The notes under the pieces: model-generated
Databases searched by the model: none
What the model saw: the letters and a program-made list of their open reading frames with translations, nothing else
Told to the model about the DNA's origin: nothing
Assembly (NCBI GenBank): GCA_963708025.1
Contig: CAVPSB010000015.1
Span: 288,001 to 352,000 of the forward strand
DNA: 64,000 nucleotides
Reading direction: 5' to 3'
Source of the DNA: an uncultured Candidatus Rokubacteria bacterium
GTDB lineage: Bacteria > Methylomirabilota > Methylomirabilia > Rokubacteriales > DASRDR01
Position numbers and translations under genes: made by a program
Part shown: positions 17,113-53,966 of the stretch, in pieces
Layout of the letters: each line of letters opens with the position of its first letter
Position numbering within the stretch: position 1 is the first letter of the stretch

Positions 17113-18692
17113 GCTCCGCCGGCGGCCGCACGGTTCAGCTGGCCGATCTGTTGCGCGTCCTGCCCGAGCGAACGCTGGCCGGCCCGCTGCCGGCCGAGGT
17201 GCGCGGCATGACCGACGACTCCCGGCGCGTGGAGGCGGGAGGCTGCTTCGTCGCGGTTCGCGGCCTCCGCGTCGACGGCCGTGGCTTCATCCCGCAGGCC
17301 GTGGAGCGAGGCGCCTGCGCGATCGTGGCCGAGCCCCCCGATCCGCTTCCCGGCCGGGCGGTCGGGCGCATTCTCGTCCCCGACAGCCGGTGGGCGCTTC
17401 CCCGGCTGGCCGACGCCTACTTCGGCCATCCTTCCCGGGCGCTCGTCGTCGTCGGCGTGACCGGGACGAACGGGAAGACCACGACCTCGTATCTCGTCGA
17501 GGCGCTTCTGCGGGCGCGCGGGCTCGAGACCGGGGTGATCGGCACCATCCAGTACGCCGGTGGCGGCGTGGCCCGGGAGGCGAGTCAGACGACCCCGGAG
17601 GCCCTCGAGCTGCAGGGCCTGCTGGCCGAGATGGTGGCCGCCGGCGTGGGCGGCGTGGCGATGGAGGTCTCCTCGCATGCCCTCGAGCAGCGGCGGGTTG
17701 ACGGGATCGCGTACGACGTCGCGATCTTCACCAACCTGACGCAGGACCACCTGGACTTTCACGGGACGATGGAGCGCTACGCCCAGGCCAAGGCGCGCCT
17801 GTTCTTCGAGCTGCTCCGGGACGGCGGCAAGCCCCGGGCCACCGCGGTGCTGAACGCCGACGACCCCGTCGGCGCGGAGTGGGCGCAGCGCCTGGCGGCC
17901 GAGGGGCGAGCGCGCGTGCTGACCTTCGGGCTTGGCGGGCTTGGCGGGCTTGGCGGGCTCGGCCGCCTCGGGTCCGAACCCACCGTGCGCCCGCGCGCCT
18001 GGGAGTCGGCCCTTGACGGGATCCGGCTCGAGGCCGCGACGCCGGCCGGCGTCGTCACCCTGCGCTCCCCGCTGATCGGCGAGCACAACGTCCTGAACCT
18101 GCTGGGGGCGGTGGCGACCGGGGTGGCGCTCGGGCTCGGCCCCGCCACGATCGCGCGGGCGCTCGGCGCGGTGGCGGCGGTGCCCGGCCGCTTCGAGCGG
18201 GTGAACGCGGGCCAGGACTTCCTGGTCGTGGTCGACTACGCCCACACGCCGGACGCGCTCACCCGGGTGCTGGAGACGGCGCGCCGGCTCACGCCGGGTC
18301 GCCTGGGCGTGGTGTTTGGCGCCGGTGGCGACCGGGACCGTGGGAAGCGGCCGATCATGGGCCGCATCGCCGCCGAGTTGGCCGACCGCGTGTGGCTGAC
18401 GTCCGACAACCCCCGGTCCGAGGACCCCCGCGCGATCCTCGAGGAGATCTCCGTAGGAGTGGTGCCCCTTCTCCCCGGCGGCTATACTAGTCATCCCGAT
18501 CGACGAGAGGCGATTCGCGACGCGCTGGGCTGGGCCCGGGCGGGCGATACGCTCGTCATCGCGGGGAAGGGCCACGAGACGTACCAGATCATCGGGGCGC
18601 AGGTTCTCCCCTTCGACGACCGCCAGGTAGTCCGCGACATCCTCGCCGGCCGCCCCCAGGCGTCACGACCACACGAAGGATCACGGGGGTGA
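17109..18692 (+). CDS. murE: UDP-MurNAc-tripeptide synthetase (meso-DAP type)
   Basis: GVTGTNGKTT, MEVSSHAL, NLTQDHLDFH, DYAHTPDAL, DNPR. Confidence 0.97.
   Translation: MSSAGGRTVQLADLLRVLPERTLAGPLPAEVRGMTDDSRRVEAGGCFVAVRGLRVDGRGFIPQAVERGACAIVAEPPDPLPGRAVGRILVPDSRWALPRLADAYFGHPSRALVVVGVTGTNGKTTTSYLVEALLRARGLETGVIGTIQYAGGGVAREASQTTPEALELQGLLAEMVAAGVGGVAMEVSSHALEQRRVDGIAYDVAIFTNLTQDHLDFHGTMERYAQAKARLFFELLRDGGKPRATAVLNADDPVGAEWAQRLAAEGRARVLTFGLGGLGGLGGLGRLGSEPTVRPRAWESALDGIRLEAATPAGVVTLRSPLIGEHNVLNLLGAVATGVALGLGPATIARALGAVAAVPGRFERVNAGQDFLVVVDYAHTPDALTRVLETARRLTPGRLGVVFGAGGDRDRGKRPIMGRIAAELADRVWLTSDNPRSEDPRAILEEISVGVVPLLPGGYTSHPDRREAIRDALGWARAGDTLVIAGKGHETYQIIGAQVLPFDDRQVVRDILAGRPQASRPHEGSRG
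17928..17963 (+). repeat. In-frame 9-bp tandem repeat (GGGCTTGGC)x3 plus one variant, inside murE
   Basis: Encodes GLGGLGGLGGLG. Confidence 0.85.
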
Positions 18693-45496: not shown

Positions 45497-46204
45497 ATGG
45501 CAACGTTCGTGCTCGTGCACGGCGCGTGGCACGGGGGGTGGTGCTGGCGTCACGTCGCGCCGTTGCTGCGGCGCGCGGGACACGACGTGTACGCGCCCTC
45601 GCTCACCGGGCTGGGCGAGCGCGCGCACCTGGCGCGGCCGGGCATCGACCTGAACGATCACGTCCAGGACGTCGTCGCGCTCCTCGACATGGAGGATCTG
45701 GGTGACGTCGTGCTCGTGGGTCACAGCTACGGCGGGATGGTGGTGACCGGCGCGGCGGACCGCAACCCGGCGCGCATCCGCCACCTCGTGTACCTGGATG
45801 CCTTCGTCCCCGAGAACGGCAAGTGCGCGCTCGACTACGTGGTGCCCGAGCGCGCGGCCGCGATGCGCAGGGACGGCGAGCAGGCGGGCAGCGTGACGCC
45901 GCCGCCGGTTTCGCTCTGGGGGCTCACCAGGCCCGAGCACATCGCCTTCGTCGAGCGGCGGGAGGTGCGGCATCCGTATCACACGCTGACGCAGCCGATC
46001 CGACTCACGAACGAAGCCGCGCTTGCGCGGCTGCCCCGGACCTTCATCTACTGCTCGTCGCCCGCGACCGGCTCGTTCGACCAGTTCGCCGCCCGGTGTC
46101 GCAACGACCCGGCGTGGCGCTTCTTCGAGCTCGAGACCGGCCACGACGCCATGATTCTCGTGCCGGCGGAGCTGTCCGAAATCCTGCTGCAGTCGGCCCG
46201 ATAG
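45497..46204 (+). CDS. Alpha/beta hydrolase (esterase)
   Basis: HGAWHGGW, GHSYGG nucleophile elbow, GHD; SD GGAGG. Confidence 0.93.
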   Translation: MATFVLVHGAWHGGWCWRHVAPLLRRAGHDVYAPSLTGLGERAHLARPGIDLNDHVQDVVALLDMEDLGDVVLVGHSYGGMVVTGAADRNPARIRHLVYLDAFVPENGKCALDYVVPERAAAMRRDGEQAGSVTPPPVSLWGLTRPEHIAFVERREVRHPYHTLTQPIRLTNEAALARLPRTFIYCSSPATGSFDQFAARCRNDPAWRFFELETGHDAMILVPAELSEILLQSAR

Positions 46205-46294
46205 CGCAAGCGCGCTCCCGGGAGCTCTCGATCCCGGAAACTTGACAGGCCGGGGGCGGCCGTCCCAGACTGCGGCCCGGGAGGACGACGAGGC

Positions 46295-47416
46295 ATGGCG
46301 CGAGCCAAAGGCTCCGGGCTGGCGGCGGCTGACCCGCGCGTCGGGCAGACGCTCCGCTTCGACGGCCAGGACTGGGAAGTCACCGACCACTCGAGCTACT
46401 GGAACGACGCGGGATACCGCGTCATGGAGTGGTGCTGCGAGGCCGAGGACGTCGAGGGCTACCTCCTCAAGGAGATCAAGGACGGCGAGCCGACCCGCTG
46501 GTTCTTCACGCGAAAGGTCCCGCGCGAGGCGGTGACCGGACTGGGCGATAGCCGGCCCGCGAGCCCGCCGCCGGCGCTCACCTTCGAGAGCCGATCCTAC
46601 CGGCACGCCGAGACGAACGAAGGCACCTACGAGGAGGAGCCGGGGCAGCGCGTCCCGAAGACCACGTGGGAGTACTGGGACGACGGCCGCCAGCGGAACC
46701 TCGCCGTCGAGCTGTGGCCGGACGGCCGTGTCAACTGCTACCACGGCGCCTACATCGAGCCCGGCCAGGTCACGCCGGTCGCCGGCGCGGAGGGCTCCGG
46801 CGACCGCGAGGAAGGGAGCGCGACCCCGGGGCGGAACGTCGCCGCGGCCGGGCTAGCCGCGCTGGCCGGGGCGGCGGCGGCCAGGGCTGCGAAAGGGGGG
46901 AAGACCGGGGGCGGGGGCGGCAACCCGTTCATCGCGGCGATGGTGTTCTTCCCCCTGGTCTACGTCTTCCCCTTCTTCGTCGGCCGGCCCTTCGACGAGT
47001 GCCTGGCGGTGGCCCTGCCGCTCGCGCTGGTCGGGGGCTGGCTCTTCGCGCTGCGCGCGCCCCGGGCGGCGGGCCTCGCCTTCCTGGGCATGGCGCTGGG
47101 GCTCTACCTGTTCTGGCGATTCCCGCCGCTGACGAGCCCGTACGGGCTGGCCGCGGTGCTCGGGGGCCCGACCGTCCTGGCGGTGTGCGCGCGCGGCGAG
47201 GCCGCCAGGAAGGGGCGGCGACCCGTGCTCTACGCGGCGGCCGTCGCGGTGGCGCTGCCCGCGGTTCTGGTCGGGCTCCACCGCTACTTCTGGTACGCCC
47301 CCGGCCCCCACACGCTCGACCAGCTCGGCCTCGCGCTCGGGCCGGCCGCGCTGGGCGGGCTCGCCGCCCTCGTGGTGGCGAGCGTGGTGCTGGTGGGCGA
47401 GACCACCGACGCCTGA
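46295..47416 (+). CDS. DUF4178-like domain protein with a C-terminal multi-pass membrane region
   Basis: Two beta-rich repeats (VGQTLRFDGQDWEV...W.EW / PPPALTFESRSY...WEY), then about 6 TM segments. Confidence 0.7.
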   Translation: MARAKGSGLAAADPRVGQTLRFDGQDWEVTDHSSYWNDAGYRVMEWCCEAEDVEGYLLKEIKDGEPTRWFFTRKVPREAVTGLGDSRPASPPPALTFESRSYRHAETNEGTYEEEPGQRVPKTTWEYWDDGRQRNLAVELWPDGRVNCYHGAYIEPGQVTPVAGAEGSGDREEGSATPGRNVAAAGLAALAGAAAARAAKGGKTGGGGGNPFIAAMVFFPLVYVFPFFVGRPFDECLAVALPLALVGGWLFALRAPRAAGLAFLGMALGLYLFWRFPPLTSPYGLAAVLGGPTVLAVCARGEAARKGRRPVLYAAAVAVALPAVLVGLHRYFWYAPGPHTLDQLGLALGPAALGGLAALVVASVVLVGETTDA

Positions 47417-47470
47417 GCGACCCGGGGCCATGGTCGGCGTGCCGGAACTGTCCGGGGCGGGGGGAGGGCG

Positions 47471-49483
47471 GTGAGCCAGGTCTTCCTCGACAGTCGCGAC
47501 GGCGGTCTCCGACTCTACCTGAACGGTGAGCTCCAGTTCGACAGCCGGGACGAGCGGCTCTATCACGAGCCACTGGCCCTCGTTCCCACCGCGCTGGCTC
47601 GCGCGCGGGCGGCGGCGCGGGAGCTGCGAGTCCTGATCCTGGGAGGCGGCGACGGCCTGGCGCTGCGGGAGGCGCTCCGGGTCCCCGGGGTCGCCGAGGC
47701 GCACGTGGTCGATCGCGATCCCGACGTCCTGCGCCTCGGCGCCGGCTCGCTGGCGGCCCTCAACGCGGGCGCCTTCCGGGATCCCCGGACGCGCGTCCAC
47801 GTCCGGGACGCGCGCGAGTTCCTCGGCCGGGCCCGGGACTTCGACGTGGTGATCTGTGACCTCACCTACCCGGGTGACGTCGCGGGCGCCGAGCTCCTCA
47901 GCGTTCCGCTGTTCCGGAAGGCGCGGGCCGCGCTGCGACCCGGCGGGGTGCTGAGCGTGAACGCCGTCTCCCCGGAGGAGACGCCCCAGGCCTTCGGCTG
48001 CGTCGGCCGCACGCTCGGCGCCGCCGGGCTGGCCGCCGTCCCATACGCGTTCATGCTGCCCTCGTTCTTCGCCGAGGGCTACGGCCGGTGGGGCTTCTTT
48101 TTCGCCTCCTCCCGGACCATCGGGACGCGTGAGCTCCGGCGGCTCCCCCTGCCGGCGGGCGCCGGAATCACGCGGCCGCTCCTCCTCGAAGGCCTGCGCC
48201 TGCCGGTGGCGGCGGGCCCCGCGATGCGTGTGGCCCCCAACCGGAGCACCGAGCTGCTCTACTACATCTACAACGCGACGCCGCTCGCCTGGGATCCCCC
48301 GTGGCGTCCGTTCCGCTTCGCCGCCTCCGCGCTCGGGGTCGGCCCGCGCCCGACCGCCGCTCAGGGCTTCGCCCGCTGGCTGCGGGCCCCGGCCGGCCGT
48401 CGGACGCTCACCGAGCTGCTGGCCTGCGTGCCCCTGGCCCAGCGCGGCCAGACCCGCGAGGCGTTTCTCGAGTGGAGCGAGCACGCCGCGGTCCTCTTCC
48501 GCGAGGTGGACCTCCGGGCGTTCCTCGAGCGGACGCTCCGGCGGGCGGCGGAGCTGCCCCGCGCCTGGGTCCGCGAGCTGCGCCGGCTCCGGGACCGCAT
48601 CCGGGCCGGGCTCCCGTCGATGGAGGAGCTGCTCGAGCAGGCCTACCGCGTCTTCGCGATCTACCTGCTCGTGCTCCTGCTGGCCAACCTGTTCTTCCCC
48701 GACAACCTGTACGCGAAGGGCGGGAGCTACTCCAGCGGCCGATCGAGCTTCTCGTCCAGCTCCAGCTCGGATTCCGGCCCGTTCCACGGGTTCAGCTTCA
48801 GCGATCCGGGACAGCGCTACGGCCCGTACCGGCACCGCGCGTTCTACTCCCGGGGCTACGGCGTCACCCCGAGCACCGGCGCCGACCGCGTCTACGACGC
48901 CGAGGGGCGGGAGTACCCGGCCCTCCGCTTCGCCCTCACCGACCCCGTGGGCGGACGGAAGCCGGTGCCCTCGCTGCTCGCGCTGAGCCCCGAGCTTCAG
49001 CTCCTCGAGACGGGGGCCATCGCCTACCTGACGGGGCTCGCCGGCTATCAGGCCCTGCTCGAGCCCGGGCGACTCCGCACCCTGGACGCGAGCGGCCGCG
49101 ACGTGCTGGCGCTGGCGCCGCCCACGCGCCTCCAGGCCGACGCCGCCAGCCGGATCGCCCAGCAGGGCCCGCTGATCGACACGGCGCTGGTCGAGCACGA
49201 GCGCTGGCTCGAGTGGACGCGCTGGCGCGCGGTGATCGCGCCGGGGCGGGGGTCGGACTCCGAGCTGGCGGGACTCCAGGCGACCCGGAAGGCCGTGGAT
49301 GCGGCCCGCGAGGTCTGGCAGCGTCCGGGGACGGCGCGCGCGTTCGACCCGCCGGCCGGCTGGGTCACGCTGTTTCCCGGCGTCTACCTCGAGCCGGCGA
49401 GGATCGCCGCCCAGGATCCGACCATCGTCCTGGTCAACCCCGACGGGAGCCAGAGCCGGCAGCCCGTCGGGCCGCCGGGTTGA
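47471..49483 (+). CDS. Spermidine synthase-like (aminopropyltransferase) protein with a long C-terminal extension; frame resumes after TGA to 49627
   Basis: RLYLNGELQFDSRDERLYHEPL, VLILGGGDGLALRE, DARE, LRPGG, WGF. Confidence 0.88.
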   Translation: MSQVFLDSRDGGLRLYLNGELQFDSRDERLYHEPLALVPTALARARAAARELRVLILGGGDGLALREALRVPGVAEAHVVDRDPDVLRLGAGSLAALNAGAFRDPRTRVHVRDAREFLGRARDFDVVICDLTYPGDVAGAELLSVPLFRKARAALRPGGVLSVNAVSPEETPQAFGCVGRTLGAAGLAAVPYAFMLPSFFAEGYGRWGFFFASSRTIGTRELRRLPLPAGAGITRPLLLEGLRLPVAAGPAMRVAPNRSTELLYYIYNATPLAWDPPWRPFRFAASALGVGPRPTAAQGFARWLRAPAGRRTLTELLACVPLAQRGQTREAFLEWSEHAAVLFREVDLRAFLERTLRRAAELPRAWVRELRRLRDRIRAGLPSMEELLEQAYRVFAIYLLVLLLANLFFPDNLYAKGGSYSSGRSSFSSSSSSDSGPFHGFSFSDPGQRYGPYRHRAFYSRGYGVTPSTGADRVYDAEGREYPALRFALTDPVGGRKPVPSLLALSPELQLLETGAIAYLTGLAGYQALLEPGRLRTLDASGRDVLALAPPTRLQADAASRIAQQGPLIDTALVEHERWLEWTRWRAVIAPGRGSDSELAGLQATRKAVDAAREVWQRPGTARAFDPPAGWVTLFPGVYLEPARIAAQDPTIVLVNPDGSQSRQPVGPPG

Positions 49484-49626
49484 CTCACCGACGAGGATCG
49501 CTTTCTCTTCCGCCTGCTCCACCGGCGCCTCACCGAGGGCAAGGACCAGTCGCTCAGCGTCCCGGTGACGCGCTGGATCGAGGCGCACGGGGCGGCCCTC
49601 GGCGTGAAGCCGGCCCCGCGCTCGTG

Positions 49627-50685
49627 ATGCGGATCGCCCCGCTCGACAGCCGGCACCGCGAGGCCTGGGACCGGCTGGTCGCGACCCATCCGGCATCCGG
49701 CTTCATGCAGTCGTGGGCGTGGTCGTGCTTCAAGGAGCTGGAAGGCTACCGGGTCGTGCGGCTGGGCGTCTTCGAGGGGGAGGCGCTCGCCGGCGGGGCG
49801 ATCGGCTACGCGTTCCCTTCGCCGGCCGAGGCCGCGCTGCTGGCCGTGCCCGACGGGCCGCTCCTCGACTGGGACGCGCCCACCGCCGGCGCCGCTTTCG
49901 AGGCGCTGGTGCGCGCCCTCCGGCGATCGCCGGCGGGCCGGCGGGCGGTGGCGGTGCGCGTCGAGCCGCGGCTCCCGCTCGGGGCGGGGCCGGAGCGGGT
50001 GCCGGCGCCGCTCCGCGGCCTGGCCCGCGCGCCCGTGGACCTGGTCCCCGAGGAGACCCTCGAGGTCGACCTGGGACCGGAGGACCTCATGCTGGCGCGG
50101 ATGAAGCCGAAGGGGCGCTACAACGCCCGCCTGGCCTGGCGCCGCGGTGTCGAGGTGGTGAGCTCGTCCGACCCCGGCGACGTGCACTCGCTCCACTTCG
50201 TCCTGGAGCAGACCGCCGGCTACCAGGACTTCCTCCTCGAGCCCAAGAGCTTCTTCATCAACCTGGCCGGGGCGCTCATGCCGGCCATGGCCCGGCTGGC
50301 CTTCGCCCGCTACAAGGGCATCACGCTGGCCGCGGCGCTGACCGTGCGCCACGGCGCGACCGTGACGTACCTCTACGGCGGGCACCTCCCGCTGTTCCCC
50401 GACGTGATGGCTAGCCATGCGCTCCACTGGCACGTCATGCGGGAGGCGGCGGCCGAGGGCGCCCGCGTCTACGACCTCTACGGTTACGCGCCGCCCGACC
50501 GGCCCGGCCATCCCTACGCCGGCTTCTCGCGCTTCAAGGAGAAGCTGGGCGGGCGCCACGTGCGCCGGATCGGCTCTCACGACGTCGTCTTCTACGATCG
50601 GCTGGCCGACGCCGCCCTCCGCGCGATCCGGTCGGCATCGGCGGTGCGGAGGCGCGCCGCCTCGGAGAGATCGGAGAGAACATGA
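49627..50685 (+). CDS. FemAB/FemX-family aminoacyl-tRNA-dependent transferase
   Basis: WDRLV...FMQSWAW..FK, MKPKGRYNARLA, YLYGG, LHWHVMREA, YDLYG, GFSRFKEKLGG. Confidence 0.88.
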   Translation: MRIAPLDSRHREAWDRLVATHPASGFMQSWAWSCFKELEGYRVVRLGVFEGEALAGGAIGYAFPSPAEAALLAVPDGPLLDWDAPTAGAAFEALVRALRRSPAGRRAVAVRVEPRLPLGAGPERVPAPLRGLARAPVDLVPEETLEVDLGPEDLMLARMKPKGRYNARLAWRRGVEVVSSSDPGDVHSLHFVLEQTAGYQDFLLEPKSFFINLAGALMPAMARLAFARYKGITLAAALTVRHGATVTYLYGGHLPLFPDVMASHALHWHVMREAAAEGARVYDLYGYAPPDRPGHPYAGFSRFKEKLGGRHVRRIGSHDVVFYDRLADAALRAIRSASAVRRRAASERSERT

Positions 50686-51521
50686 GCTACGGGCTGTCAG
50701 CCGTCACCTATCTCGTCCTGTCCTTCGGGATCTGCTGGATCGGGAAGGTGGCCTACGGCCTCTTTCATCCCCGCGTCCGGGTCGACCGGGAGATGACCGC
50801 CCGCGACAACCTCGCGTTCGCGGTGCCGATGGGCGCCTACTACCTCGGCATTCTCATCGTGATGGGGGCCCCGCTCTCGGGGCAGCCCCGGGGGGATTTC
50901 GTGCGGGAGGCGCTCTCGGTACTGGCGTGGGGCGTCCTGGCCATGGTGCTGCTGAACGTCGCCTCGCTCGCCAACCGGCGGTTCCTGTTCGGCGGCATCG
51001 ACCTGGCGGGGGAGATCCTCGAGCGGACCAACGTGGCGGCCGGGATCCTGGTCGGCGGCTCGCACATCGCCAACGCCCTCCTGATCCTCGGGGCCCTGGC
51101 CGACGAGGGCGGCCTCCTGCCGGCGGCCGTCTTCTGGCTGTACGCCCAGGTCCTCCTGACGCTGGCCGCGATCGCCTTCCAGCGCCTCGTCCGCTGCGAC
51201 CTCGCCGCCGAGATCCGGCGGGGGAACCAGGCGCTCGCGCTCGCGGTCGCCGGGGCGCTCATCGGCATCGGCAACATCCTGCGCATGTCGATCAGCGGGC
51301 CCTTCGAGGGCTGGTCGGCGGGCTTCGCCGCCTCGACCGGCTACGCGGTGGCCGGCCTCGTGCTCCTCTTCGTGGTCCGGCAGCTCGCCGACTGGGTGCT
51401 CCTGCCGGGGGTGACGATCCGGCAGGAGGTCCTGGAGCAGGAGGTGCCGAACGTCGGCGTCGGCTACCTCGAGGCGGTCTTCTACCTGGGGGCGTCGCTG
51501 CTGGTCGGCTGGAGCCTGTAG
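50682..51521 (+). CDS. Tandem DUF350-domain membrane protein
   Basis: Repeated D/E-I-x-x-N-x-A helix caps (DNLA, TNVA, GNQA, PNVG) between TM pairs. Confidence 0.8.
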   Translation: MSYGLSAVTYLVLSFGICWIGKVAYGLFHPRVRVDREMTARDNLAFAVPMGAYYLGILIVMGAPLSGQPRGDFVREALSVLAWGVLAMVLLNVASLANRRFLFGGIDLAGEILERTNVAAGILVGGSHIANALLILGALADEGGLLPAAVFWLYAQVLLTLAAIAFQRLVRCDLAAEIRRGNQALALAVAGALIGIGNILRMSISGPFEGWSAGFAASTGYAVAGLVLLFVVRQLADWVLLPGVTIRQEVLEQEVPNVGVGYLEAVFYLGASLLVGWSL

Positions 51522-51526
51522 ATCCT

Positions 51527-51632
51527 TCGGGGGGGTCTCGGAAGACCCCCCCGATGCCCCCCTCGGTTGCGGCGCCTAGTGGACGGCCTTCGGCCTTTGG
51601 GCTGCCGCTCGGACGCTGCACGCTGCCGAGCG
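51527..51632. repeat. Palindromic intergenic element (family 3), possible bidirectional terminator
   Basis: Perfect 12-bp stem TCGGGGGGGTCT-CGGA-AGACCCCCCCGA between convergent genes; related to 34040-34118; contains a GGCCTTCGGCC module. Confidence 0.7.
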
Positions 51633-51665
51633 CGGCCGGCCGCAGCCGTTCCCGATGCTCCTCCT

Positions 51666-52286
51666 CTAGGTTCCGAAGAGGCGGTCGCCGAAGTCGCCCA
51701 GCCCGGGCAGGATGAACTTCCGCTCGTTGAGCTCGCGATCGACCGCCGCGGTGTAGACGATGGCGTCCGGGACCGCCGACCGGAGGAGGGCGATGCCCTC
51801 GGGTGCGGCCACGATCGACAGGAGGCGTACCCGGCGGGCGCCGAGCTCGGCGAGTCCCTCGATCGCCATCGCGGCCGAGCCCCCCGTGGCCAGCATGGGG
51901 TCGAGGAGGAAGACCACGGCGCCCGCCAGGTCTTTCGGCACCTTCTCGTAGTAGCGACGCGCCACCGCCGTCACCTCGTCGCGCTCGAGGCCGAAGTAGC
52001 CGACTTGCGCCTGCGGCACGAGCTCGAGGAACCCGTCGAGCATGCCCAGGCCGGCGCGCAGCACCGGCACCGCGACCACCCGCGCCGCGAGCCGGCGCAC
52101 CGCCGTCGCCTCCAGCGGCGTCTCGACCGTGCGCTCGGCCAGCGGCAGGTCGCGGGTGGCCTCCGCGACCAGGAGCAGGCTCACCCGGCGGGCGAGCTGG
52201 CGAAAGACGTCGCTGGGAGTGTGGCGATCCCGCAGCGCGGCGAGAACATCCTCGACCAGGGGGTGCTGGAGAACGTGGACGTCCAT
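51666..52286 (-). CDS. upp: Uracil phosphoribosyltransferase
   Basis: PVLRAGLGM, DPMLATGGSA, FILPGLGDFGDRLFGT. Confidence 0.97.
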   Translation of the reverse strand: MDVHVLQHPLVEDVLAALRDRHTPSDVFRQLARRVSLLLVAEATRDLPLAERTVETPLEATAVRRLAARVVAVPVLRAGLGMLDGFLELVPQAQVGYFGLERDEVTAVARRYYEKVPKDLAGAVVFLLDPMLATGGSAAMAIEGLAELGARRVRLLSIVAAPEGIALLRSAVPDAIVYTAAVDRELNERKFILPGLGDFGDRLFGT

Positions 52287-52300
52287 GGGTCGCTGCGGCG

Positions 52301-53860
52301 CTACCGCTCGAGGTCTCGCAGCACCACGGTGGCCGCGTTGCGGCCGGGCAGGCCGCTGACGTACCCCCCGGGGTGGCTGCCGCTCCCGCAGAGGTAGAGG
52401 CTCCCGACCGGCATCCGGTGGCCACCGAACCCCGGGATCGGCCGGAGCGAGAAGAGCTGCTCGAGGGTCAGGTCCCCGTGGAAGATGTTCCCGCCGGTGA
52501 TGTTGAAGCGCGCCTCGATGTCGGGGGGCACCAGGACCATCCAGTCGCGGATCACGTCCCGGATGTTGGGGGCGTGCTCGGCCAGCGTGTCGAAGACGTC
52601 CTCCACGAACGCGCGCCGCCGCTCGGGCGTCCAGGGACCATCGGCCGGCTGGTACGGCACCCAGTCGCCGTACACCGTCATCGTGTGCTTTCCGGGGGGC
52701 GCCAGCCCGGGATCGGTGATCGACTGGAAGTGGAGGATCGCGTACGGCCGCCGGGGGACCCGACCCGCCCGCGCGTCCCGGTAGGCCGTCTCCAGGTACT
52801 CGAGGCTCGGGGAGATGACGACGCCGCCGCGGAGGTACGGCGTCTGGTCGCCGGGCGGCAACGCCCGGAAGCGCGGCAAGGCGTCCAGCGCGCAGTTGAT
52901 CTTGTAGGAGCAGCCGGTCGTGCGATAGCGCCGGAGGTCGGCGACCACGTCGGGATCGAGCGCCTGCTCGCCGACGAGCCCCAGCAGCGTGTGGCGGGGG
53001 TCGGCGTTGGAGAGCACGACCCGGGCCGGCACCTCTTCCCCGCCGGCGAGCGCGACCCCGGTCGCCGCGCCATCCCTGATCAGCACGCGCTCGACGGTGA
53101 CGCCGGTCCGGATCTCCCCGCCGTGCCGGCGCAGCGTGGTGGCGAGCGCCTGGCTGAGCCCGCCCATGCCGCCGCGGATGTACCCGAAGCACCCCAGGTG
53201 GTCGTCCACGCGCGCGGCCAGGTGGTGGGCCTTCGAGTACGCCGACCCGGGCGTGGACGGCCCGACGAACGTGCCCACGGCGCCGCCGAAGGCGAGGAGT
53301 CCCTTGACGCCCTCCGACTCGAAGTACGCGTCGACCAGGTCCCGGGTGGTGCCCAGGATGAACCGGGCCAGCAGGCGCTCGCCGTCCGCCCCGTGGAATG
53401 CTCGCGCGAAGTCGCCCCACGTCCAGTCGTCGGCCGGACGCAGGAAGTGATCGCGCAGGATCGCTCCCACCCGGGCGCCGTCAGCCTCGAAGCGCGGCCA
53501 GGCCTCGGCGTCGCGCCGCGACCACCGGGCCACGTCGCGGACCGTCCGCTCGAGGTCGGGGTAGACGACCAGGTGTCGGCCGTCCGGGAAGACGCCGGTG
53601 AACTGCGGATCGCGGACGTACGACGCGAAGCCCGCCTCCCGGAGTCCGAGCTCCTGCACGATCTCCGGCTGTAGCATGCCGACCGTGTACGACGCCACGC
53701 TCAGGCGGAAGCCCGGGAACAGCTCCTCGGTCACGCAGGCGCCGCCTACCAGCTCGCGGCGCTCCAGCACCACGACCGAGAGCCCGGCCCTGGCGAGATA
53801 GCACGCCGCCGTCAGCCCGTTGTGCCCGCCCCCCACCACGACCGCGTCATAGCGCTTCAT
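52301..53860 (-). CDS. Phytoene dehydrogenase-like FAD oxidoreductase
   Basis: VGGGHNGL...LERRELVGGA, GGMG, GGNIFHG, LYLCGSGSHPGG. Confidence 0.9.
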   Translation of the reverse strand: MKRYDAVVVGGGHNGLTAACYLARAGLSVVVLERRELVGGACVTEELFPGFRLSVASYTVGMLQPEIVQELGLREAGFASYVRDPQFTGVFPDGRHLVVYPDLERTVRDVARWSRRDAEAWPRFEADGARVGAILRDHFLRPADDWTWGDFARAFHGADGERLLARFILGTTRDLVDAYFESEGVKGLLAFGGAVGTFVGPSTPGSAYSKAHHLAARVDDHLGCFGYIRGGMGGLSQALATTLRRHGGEIRTGVTVERVLIRDGAATGVALAGGEEVPARVVLSNADPRHTLLGLVGEQALDPDVVADLRRYRTTGCSYKINCALDALPRFRALPPGDQTPYLRGGVVISPSLEYLETAYRDARAGRVPRRPYAILHFQSITDPGLAPPGKHTMTVYGDWVPYQPADGPWTPERRRAFVEDVFDTLAEHAPNIRDVIRDWMVLVPPDIEARFNITGGNIFHGDLTLEQLFSLRPIPGFGGHRMPVGSLYLCGSGSHPGGYVSGLPGRNAATVVLRDLER

Positions 53861-53966
53861 CCCCGGCCTCCTCCCTTGCCCGGCTCCGGCGCAGCCCAAT
53901 TATAGGGGCGAGGTCCGAGAAGTGTCGGCCGAAGTCCGGCGGCATGCCTTGGAGCTCGGCGCGCGG

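Follow-up and report, generated by a model that had tools for sequence, protein, structure and literature searches.

We describe a four-gene cluster at positions 46295–51521 of a 64,000-nucleotide stretch of DNA (hereafter "the window") from an uncultured Candidatus Rokubacteria bacterium (contig CAVPSB010000015.1). The cluster encodes (i) a DUF4178 protein (G1), (ii) a relative of the aminopropyltransferase SpeE (G2), (iii) a member of the FemAB family (G3), and (iv) a tandem DUF350 membrane protein (G4). The central finding is that the Fem gene is found beside this particular kind of SpeE-like gene in genomes from several phyla, and that the SpeE-like enzymes with a Fem partner have lost one specific aspartate from their active site. 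We judge the chances to be about even that G1–G4 constitute one conserved functional module, which works by the mechanism proposed below and represents a Fem-type branch of the membrane modules built from S-adenosylmethionine (AdoMet, or SAM) decarboxylase, SpeE-like, DUF350, and DUF4178 proteins. The pairing of Fem with a SpeE-like gene is undescribed in the literature searched; the parent kind of module is known, and is functionally unsolved.

The four genes lie co-oriented on the + strand, in a region of ~73% G+C. Gene calls rest on an analysis of G+C by codon position, in particular at third positions (GC3), and on a listing of open reading frames (ORFs); together with Pfam searches, these agree with the gene order and identities given in a preliminary description of this DNA. 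G1 (46295–47416; 373 aa) matches PF13785 over residues 15–156 (E = 3.8e-14) and carries membrane helices downstream of this domain. G2 (47471–49627; 718 aa as a full frame) matches PF01564 Spermine_synth with E = 7.6e-23 and 81.5 bits, against a cut-off of 22.9; the called ORF (47471–49483; 670 aa) is shorter, ending at an in-frame TGA that is considered below. G3 (49627–50685; 352 aa) is FemX-like, without a coiled-coil insert, and matches PF02388 FemAB (E = 4.5e-27; 95.3 bits, cut-off 24) plus PF13480 Acetyltransf_6, the only two families reported for it by Pfam. G4 (50682–51521; 279 aa) is a member of the YjfL family with eight hydrophobic helices, and matches PF03994 in two stretches (E = 2.8e-45), DUF350 being its sole Pfam family.

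The association of these genes extends well beyond this genome. One genome per species was scanned, with an alignment of Fem orthologues as the query, yielding 23 loci. All 17 species loci with a near-full-length match (at least 39% identity) have a G2 relative directly beside the Fem gene; G1 is present in 14 of these 17 (in the remainder, the contig begins too late to include it) and G4, by tblastn, in 13. Six weak, partial Fem matches of the Desulfotignum type (34–36% identity) have no partner genes. In a profile count over 23 Fem-type loci, G1 orthologues are found upstream of G2 in 20, the three misses being truncated by a contig start, and G4 is present in 19. The carriers are labelled as Methylomirabilota/Rokubacteria, cyanobacteria (Phormidium, Floridaenema, Leptolyngbya, Nostocales, Acaryochloridaceae, and Myxacorys), Syntrophobacteraceae, and Omnitrophota, and two metagenome-assembled genomes bear the labels Elusimicrobia and Rhizobium. 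The order G1-G2-G3-G4 is maintained in all species loci but one, and in most the stop codon of G2 and the start codon of G3 overlap or nearly touch. Since this order is conserved in other phyla, the arrangement is far beyond what chance would produce.

Denser samples were taken from two phyla and from metagenomes. Among 201 Methylomirabilota genomes—including five flagged as unpublished, none of which carries the cluster—Fem orthologues of at least 65% identity occur in eight. Full-length G2 orthologues are restricted to the same eight genomes, where they are adjacent to Fem on the same contig in seven (in the eighth, a contig edge interrupts the locus). A cyanobacterial sample of 201 genomes contains a Fem orthologue in 10, so the module is patchily distributed, with a frequency of ~4–5% in both phylum samples. 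A metagenome scan centred on G2 gave 80 loci, consisting of eight of the G2 type and 72 with other SpeE-like genes; the latter serve as comparators throughout. Fem and G4 follow G2 in all five of the G2-type loci that have downstream sequence, while Fem is seen in none of the 72 comparators. The preliminary description had allowed that Fem might prove unlinked to the other genes elsewhere; the 17/17 species loci and 5/5 metagenome loci show adjacency to the SpeE-like gene instead. In addition, 26 Fem/G2 pairs from the protein database agree in the length of their longest contig, and in one instance, the 788-aa metagenome protein P0290, Fem is joined to a SpeE-like part of the G2 type within a single polypeptide. 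A second candidate fusion, in genome G326, was rejected on finding that its long open frames lie in different reading frames.

G3 covers both halves of the double-GNAT architecture in a single frame (PF02388 profile positions 4–106 and 304–390 in the genome search). Its best solved relative is Staphylococcus aureus FemX (6snr; E = 4.9e-12, aligned residues 13–217 and 229–324). Residues F303-K304 of G3 are invariant in 15/15 orthologues, and align with the FK dipeptide of S. aureus FemX. A key lysine following an aromatic residue is described in PMC12945691 as Lys305 of Weissella viridescens FemX and as part of Phe328-Lys329 in DhpH-C; the equivalence of K304 and Lys305 is drawn via that description rather than from an alignment of our own. 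The same source describes Fem-like enzymes of antibiotic pathways that acylate small-molecule amines (Orf11, PacB, VlmA, and DhpH/DhpK).

FemX being the closest solved structure, G3 could instead act on peptidoglycan precursors, adding a branch to the stem peptide with no involvement of the SpeE-like enzyme, and with the shared neighbourhood reflecting no more than common regulation of envelope genes. Orthologues of G3 are indeed automatically named "lipid II:glycine glycyltransferase", and cell-wall genes flank the cluster at two loci: genes for a penicillin-binding protein transpeptidase and VanY upstream in L013, and a DPBB/RlpA-like gene downstream in L017. These neighbours are not conserved among loci, however, whereas adjacency to G2 is strict—often with overlapping stop and start codons—in records labelled as at least four phyla. 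The P0290 fusion and the absence of Fem from the comparator clusters (0/72) speak against an independent wall function too, as does the MurE gene in the window (17196–18644). As the preliminary description had noted, MurE carries the DNPR motif of the meso-diaminopimelate (meso-DAP) type. By profile search G3 is the sole FemAB locus in this genome; similarly, five other host genomes gave no strong FemAB match apart from the cluster Fem, and two of them show one extra weak hit each. We therefore concur that a classical Lys cross-bridge is an unlikely role for G3, as far as sequence can tell, and consider action on peptidoglycan precursors in general to be very improbable. As a side observation, MurE is followed by further Mur-ligase-like matches up to ~25300 (G000:C15:305196-313236), in what looks like a dcw cluster ~28 kb upstream of G1–G4.

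Under the preferred reading, in which G3 acts together with G2, Fem is a partner from a family of known chemistry: it would join an amino acid from aminoacyl-tRNA to an amine through an amide bond. Because this is the bond that the Fem partner would form, the pathway intermediate would be expected to bear a free amine on the cytoplasmic side of the membrane.

G2 has as its best solved relative the SpeE of Thermus thermophilus (E = 7.9e-24). Two motifs of the site for decarboxylated SAM (dcSAM), GGGDG and Q..DE..YHE, are invariant in 14/14 G2 orthologues and align with the T. thermophilus enzyme. The catalytic Asp, the first of the motif D-x-x-D-P, is D130 in G2 and is likewise invariant. For human spermidine synthase, PMC13619349 describes Asp173 as the residue that takes a proton from the attacking amine, and Asp176 as the hydrogen-bond partner of the amine at the far end of putrescine or spermidine; D130 is mapped to Asp173 via the shared D-x-x-D-P motif, not by direct alignment. 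The second Asp of D-x-x-D-P has been replaced in the Fem-linked enzymes. It is Y133 in the window's G2 and Y, F, C, H, or A in 23/23 Fem-type enzymes that have data at this site, as opposed to Asp in 72/72 comparators; counting somewhat against this contrast, the two groups were set by the presence of Fem and by the G2 profile score, and so are not fully independent of the motif itself. Loss of the second Asp with retention of the catalytic one suggests that the acceptor is not putrescine-like, lacking a far ammonium group. Judged by their motifs, the Fem-linked SpeE-like enzymes look catalytically competent and tuned to such an acceptor.

A contrasting explanation is that G2 is not an aminopropyltransferase at all, but that it either methylates with SAM or has no catalytic function and brings Fem to the membrane as a scaffold or sensor, leaving Fem to perform the only chemistry. 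The lost substrate-anchoring Asp is compatible with this; weak matches to Methyltransf_25/12, below the cut-off, are found on G2, and PF13847 is matched on the fusion P0290. NCBIfam equivalog cut-offs are also missed by a wide margin—189 bits vs 472 for PRK03612, the best match, and 80.2 vs 249.55 for TIGR00417 speE—with the PRK03612 match beginning at position 264 of the 522-position profile. On the other hand, the motifs of dcSAM enzymes and the catalytic Asp are invariant, and in 9/23 Fem-type loci the cluster has an AdoMet_dc gene (PF02675) next to it. Such a neighbour would make little sense with any substrate other than dcSAM, and we regard a G2 without aminopropyltransferase activity as rather improbable.

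The preliminary description had remarked on the lack of a SAM decarboxylase, which is true of the window (none was found there) but not of the genome: contig C22 carries a SpeD-SpeE pair, the SpeE of which is canonical. Two further SpeE-like genes were seen in this genome, at G000:C19:224365-224823 and G000:C31:310647-311027, within open frames of 1158 and 799 aa, respectively. Given that DUF350 and DUF4178 are single-copy in the genome, these two genes do not belong to a second module. A separate observation concerns one locus labelled Omnitrophota (L016:2412-4083), in which Fem is followed by an AdoMet decarboxylase gene and a gene for a group II decarboxylase dependent on pyridoxal phosphate (PF00282), a possible source of an amine acceptor.

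Beyond its catalytic domain, G2 has a distinctive layout. The SpeE-like domain (residues 1–215) is followed by a conserved helical middle region (~215–385), a hydrophobic helix (~390–410), a Ser/Gly-rich stretch, and a C-terminal region. The part beyond the helix is lineage-dependent, comprising ~270 residues here and including a second helix in cyanobacteria. Hydropathy and the PRK03612 alignment reveal neither an N-terminal multi-helix (7TM) fusion nor a signal peptide. G1 consists of an N-terminal, all-beta DUF4178 domain (~residues 1–165), a Gly/Ala-rich linker, and, by hydropathy, approximately five C-terminal hydrophobic helices (212–369); cyanobacterial versions have one C-terminal helix only. 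Since both proteins begin without hydrophobic segments, the DUF4178 and SpeE-like domains should be cytoplasmic, as should Fem, given its need for charged tRNA. Accordingly placed, the catalytic domain of G2 should be tethered to the membrane by the C-terminal hydrophobic helix.

Structural searches added little to this outline. The AlphaFold2 model of G1 residues 1–170 is an all-beta structure of 10 strands with a pLDDT of 94.1. Foldseek found nothing in the PDB for this model at E <= 0.001 (best 3.3e-2, TM 0.18), and a wide search with VIA reached at best Z 5.5 over ~57 aligned residues (CarD N-domain, EF-P/EfpL domain I, eIF5A, and Tudor-like). The VIA matches fall below the tool's stated noise level, and so no fold is assigned to DUF4178. 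Searches against PDB sequences gave nothing useful for G1, for G4, or for G2 beyond its SpeE domain. For G2 residues 215–670, the ESM Atlas returned a best score of 0.75 and no lead; the model of the middle region is poor (pLDDT 69.8, pTM 0.41), and the best VIA match to this region (Z 6.1) consists of helical hairpins and is meaningless.

The hydrophobic helix of G2 ends in the motif ANL..PD..YAKG, which is invariant in 14/14 orthologues across phyla, and the Asn, Pro, and Lys of which (the Lys being K416) are invariant in 40/40. This degree of conservation bears on a further alternative: that both enzymes modify a protein, at a lysine or N-terminus, with the YAKG Lys of G2 or the DUF4178 protein as examples of a target. 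The epsilon-amine of lysine is the classical acylation target of the Fem family, DUF4178 always accompanies SpeE-like enzymes of both types, and the weak fold hints for DUF4178 (Z ~5) include domain I of EF-P/eIF5A, itself lysine-modified. Those hints are the same ones that lie below the noise level, however, and the positive-inside rule, applied to the flanking charges, would leave the YAKG Lys facing outwards, with the membrane between it and the two catalytic domains. Furthermore, we know of no SpeE-family enzyme that aminopropylates a protein. Modification of a protein is in our estimation improbable, though less so than either of the two alternatives above.

Our proposal for the module starts from what can be observed directly—the gene identities, the synteny across phyla, the exclusive pairing between Fem and this subtype of SpeE-like enzyme, the change in the active site, and the SpeD adjacency—and from these we infer all of the chemistry, any topology other than the hydrophobic helix itself, and what G1 and G4 do. 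G2, held by the membrane at its cytoplasmic face, would add an aminopropyl group from dcSAM to an amine acceptor that is not putrescine-like. The dcSAM would be supplied by the SpeD encoded elsewhere in this genome, and by a SpeD encoded next door in 9/23 related loci. G3, of the FemX type, would acylate an amine of the same molecule from aminoacyl-tRNA, generating an N-aminoacyl-aminopropyl (that is, aminoacyl-polyamine-like) group; either of these two steps could come first, the order given in the preliminary description (aminopropylation before aminoacylation) being one possibility. G1, anchored in the membrane, may assist the SpeE-like enzyme, as an accessory or by holding its substrate, while the eight-helix G4 would take the product into or across the membrane. 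With respect to the acceptor, we lean towards a small amine, with a lipid head group somewhat behind; a protein lysine is given distinctly less weight, on a par with all other acceptors together. The full joint scheme, in which aminopropyltransferase and Fem share one amine close to the membrane, a lipid head group or small amine, and turn it into an aminoacyl-aminopropyl conjugate that DUF350 moves to the surface, is put forward tentatively, as one that is less likely than not to be right as a whole.

Several observations weigh against this proposal. In the phylum sample, genomes G198 and G035 contain SpeE-like matches of 43–44% identity that reach residues 296–329, with no Fem orthologue on the contig. 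DUF350 is missing beside Fem in L010, L016, and L018, and DUF4178 was not found in two divergent loci of the cyanobacterial sample, L108 (G326:C294) and L109 (G344:C455), within the 9–12 kb covered, although both retain the G2-Fem pair; it follows that only the SpeE-like/Fem pair seems to be invariant. Pairwise identities of Fem and of G2 are strongly correlated over 18 loci (r = 0.97; Mantel 0 of 2000), but the same would be expected of any two genes that follow the species tree. In P0290, the Fem part comes directly after the hydrophobic helix. If that helix spanned the membrane, Fem would be outside the cell and away from tRNA, and so either the helix is not transmembrane in this protein or P0290 is a gene-call artefact. 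Finally, an in-frame TGA at 49481–49483 (+ strand) removes 47 conserved residues from the window's G2.

This TGA, which the preliminary description overlooked, either arose by nonsense mutation or was introduced as an error of sequencing or assembly. Downstream of it, 47 more codons with coding-like, high GC3 continue in the G2 frame, up to the TGA that overlaps the start of G3. All seven Methylomirabilota loci read a sense codon where the window's G2 has TGA, and they conserve the tail LT[DE]EDRF. Soil-metagenome contigs ~96% identical to the window have C at 49481, making the codon CGA (Arg), in both of the runs covering the site. Full-length G2 homologues in the protein database are mostly 705–750 aa long (a few are 657–700 aa), compared with the 670 aa called here.

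One interpretation of the TGA is that the module is decaying in this genome: the nonsense codon is real, and the cluster is non-functional here and functional in relatives. The conserved residues stripped by the stop and the CGA of near-identical environmental contigs both fit such decay. So do defective copies at other loci, namely a G2 frameshift in L006/G163 and stops counted inside the Fem matches of G084:C114, G104:C424, G246, G225, and G312, which could reflect either the decay of an accessory module or assembly errors. Conversely, as the 47 downstream codons retain both high GC3 and conserved residues, the TGA is very recent or an error of assembly. The assembly is in 49 contigs with 8.18% contamination, and read-through of UGA is possible. 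Overall, the module may be impaired in this genome, G2 being truncated by the TGA; that it is truly decaying is a serious possibility, but one we are inclined to doubt.

The 72 comparators place the Fem-type module among its relatives. Pfam was run on 109 ORFs from 16 of the comparator loci, and profile counts were made over all 72; because many of the contigs are short, these counts are lower bounds. A flavin amine oxidase gene lies immediately downstream of the SpeE-like gene in at least 38/72, AdoMet decarboxylase is found in at least 30/72, DUF4178 in at least 35/72, Band-7 in at least 22/72, and a single DUF350 in at least 19/72. The SpeE-like domain of comparators sits behind 4–7 hydrophobic helices, and the oxidases have an RRxFL Tat-like N-terminus in 9/9 inspected. 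Neither Band-7 (0/23) nor the cluster-type amine oxidase (0/23) occurs in Fem-type loci. From the predicted topologies, the Fem-type module appears to face inwards, whereas the sister form of the system probably acts on the outside of the membrane. Three comparators have 860–985-aa ORFs at the SpeE-like match (L039:7460-10414, L063:7460-10411, and L057:7823-10408) with amine-oxidase or NAD-binding domains in the second half, which suggests a SpeE-like/oxidase fusion.

These comparisons alter one part of the preliminary description and uphold others. The recurrent neighbourhood of DUF4178, DUF350, and SpeE-like genes that it described is found here and at other loci, and its remark that an ATP-grasp ligase is missing agrees with a search of this genome, which found no GSP_synth. 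The contrast it drew between Fem and ATP-grasp genes is not the informative one: in the nearest relatives, the slot of Fem is taken by a flavin amine oxidase with a Tat signal, and neither GSP_synth nor Fem is among the 109 ORFs of the 16 comparator loci. Given the absence of GSP_synth from this genome and from those ORFs, replacement of an ATP-grasp ligase by Fem is an analogy only.

Several known systems resemble the cluster in part. Clusters of Band-7, DUF4178, DUF350, membrane-fused SpeE-like, flavin amine oxidase, and AdoMet decarboxylase genes correspond to a variant of the third group of phage-shock-protein (PSP)-associated systems described in PMC11237479, where Ravi et al. 2024 credit the linkage to AdoMet decarboxylase to Li et al. 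2019 (Biochem J 476:2579). The window's cluster has in common with them DUF4178, DUF350, a SpeE-like enzyme with GGGDG and the catalytic Asp, frequent AdoMet decarboxylase, and membrane association. It differs in that (i) the SpeE-like domain comes first in the protein and has its anchor on the C-terminal side, (ii) the second Asp of D-x-x-D-P is replaced, (iii) a cytoplasmic Fem stands in place of the Tat-signal oxidase, (iv) Band-7 is absent, and (v) DUF350 is a tandem of eight helices rather than single. The second group in PMC11237479 includes a CesT/Tir-PspA operon (Shewanella AAN56744–AAN56747) with a 7TM-spermine-synthase-like protein, an 8TM YjfL/DUF350 protein, the Ctha_1186 lipoprotein, and DUF4178. 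As described there, this operon shares its SpeE-like enzyme, 8TM DUF350, and DUF4178 with the window's cluster, which is without PspA, CesT, the lipoprotein, and the 7TM fusion, and which has Fem in addition. Pfam finds no PspA, CesT, or lipoprotein domains on the four cluster genes, and there are none among the other cluster-flanking ORFs scanned. In the E. coli-type yjf clusters of the third group, a glutathionylspermidine-synthase-like ATP-grasp protein occurs with a 4TM DUF350, DUF1190, and DUF2491; DUF350 again neighbours an enzyme forming amide bonds on amines, but no SpeE-like gene figures in the description of these clusters in PMC11237479.

Among the Fem proteins, FemX/FemABX and the Fem-like small-molecule transferases share with G3 their Pfam family, its size (352 aa, with no coiled-coil insert), and the aligned FK dipeptide. 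The partner of G3, in contrast, is an aminopropyltransferase-like gene and not a set of cell-wall or antibiotic genes, and the MurE of the host is of the meso-DAP type. MprF, which combines an aminoacyl-phosphatidylglycerol synthase with a flippase, offers a purely functional analogy: its aminoacyl transferase, tRNA-dependent and built on the double-GNAT fold seen in Fem enzymes, works on the cytoplasmic side and is coupled to a multi-helix membrane protein by which a cationic product could be moved outward. Pfam places no MprF-type domain on G3 or G4, a lipid acceptor is hypothetical here, and the aminopropyl step has no counterpart in MprF. Literature searches returned nothing on Fem linked to SpeE-like genes, DUF350, or DUF4178, nothing under "aminoacyl-polyamine" or "aminoacylated polyamine", and no functional literature on Rv2597–Rv2601; the terms "FemAB", "aminoacyl", and "tRNA" are absent from the main text of PMC11237479.

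Details of the locus itself are as follows. Upstream of G1, a TTGACA hexamer lies at 46242–46247 (+ strand), 48 nt 5' of the start codon, and a Shine-Dalgarno-like GGGAGGA run at 46279–46285. A scan of 46100–51800 for sigma-70-like promoters gave none that passed; with no –10 partner, TTGACA is a mere candidate –35 element. G1 and G2 are separated by a 54-nt spacer (47417–47470), while G3 is preceded by a TGATG junction at 49625–49629 (the G2 frame ending there having been broken 144 nt earlier by the in-frame TGA) and overlaps G4 through ATGA at 50682–50685. A perfect 12-bp, GC-rich hairpin with a 4-nt loop begins 6 nt after the G4 stop (51527–51554, + strand), and is a possible terminator without a U tract; lacking a T run, it is absent from the output of the terminator scan. 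Its energy of –29.6 kcal/mol is ordinary for its composition (z –1.39; 16/200 shuffles are equally good). The hexamer, the two junctions, and the terminal hairpin noted in the preliminary description are all present, then, but the hexamer is not part of any promoter found in the scan, the overlaps do not extend to G1/G2, and the hairpin has neither a T run nor an exceptional energy.

Immediate neighbours of the cluster appear unconnected with it. An unrelated alpha/beta hydrolase gene (45497–46204) is found upstream, and two convergent genes lie on the 3' side: upp (51669–52286, – strand) and a gene for an FAD oxidoreductase of the PF01593 amine-oxidase family (52301–53899, – strand). None of the three accompanies the cluster at other loci, and upp and the PF01593 gene are for this reason probably incidental. 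The PF01593 oxidoreductase was considered as a candidate amine oxidase of the module and rejected: it is not conserved with the cluster, and does not match the profile of the comparator oxidases at E <= 1e-5. No tRNA genes were found at 40–58 kb of the window, and no Rfam families at 45–52.5 kb.

Membrane modules of SpeE-like, DUF350, and DUF4178 proteins are widespread and have been catalogued twice, yet their product is not known. The Fem-type branch adds to them an enzyme from a family whose chemistry is established, along with a sharp change in the active site: the Asp that anchors putrescine is missing in precisely those SpeE-like enzymes that have a Fem partner. The module is also accessible to experiment, being found in records of the cultured cyanobacteria Leptolyngbya sp. 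FACHB-36 and Floridaenema fluviatile BLCC-F154, where knock-outs are feasible. With this pairing, the known range of Fem enzymes is no longer confined to the cell wall and antibiotic synthesis. Should the product be a cationic lipid or a surface amine, there could be consequences for the charge of the membrane and for tolerance of stress; should the joint conjugate exist as tentatively proposed, it would represent a class of cationic compound, in the envelope or secreted, that is new. If correct, the proposal would provide the first functional handle on the DUF350/DUF4178/SpeE-like modules, their mycobacterial and proteobacterial cousins included.

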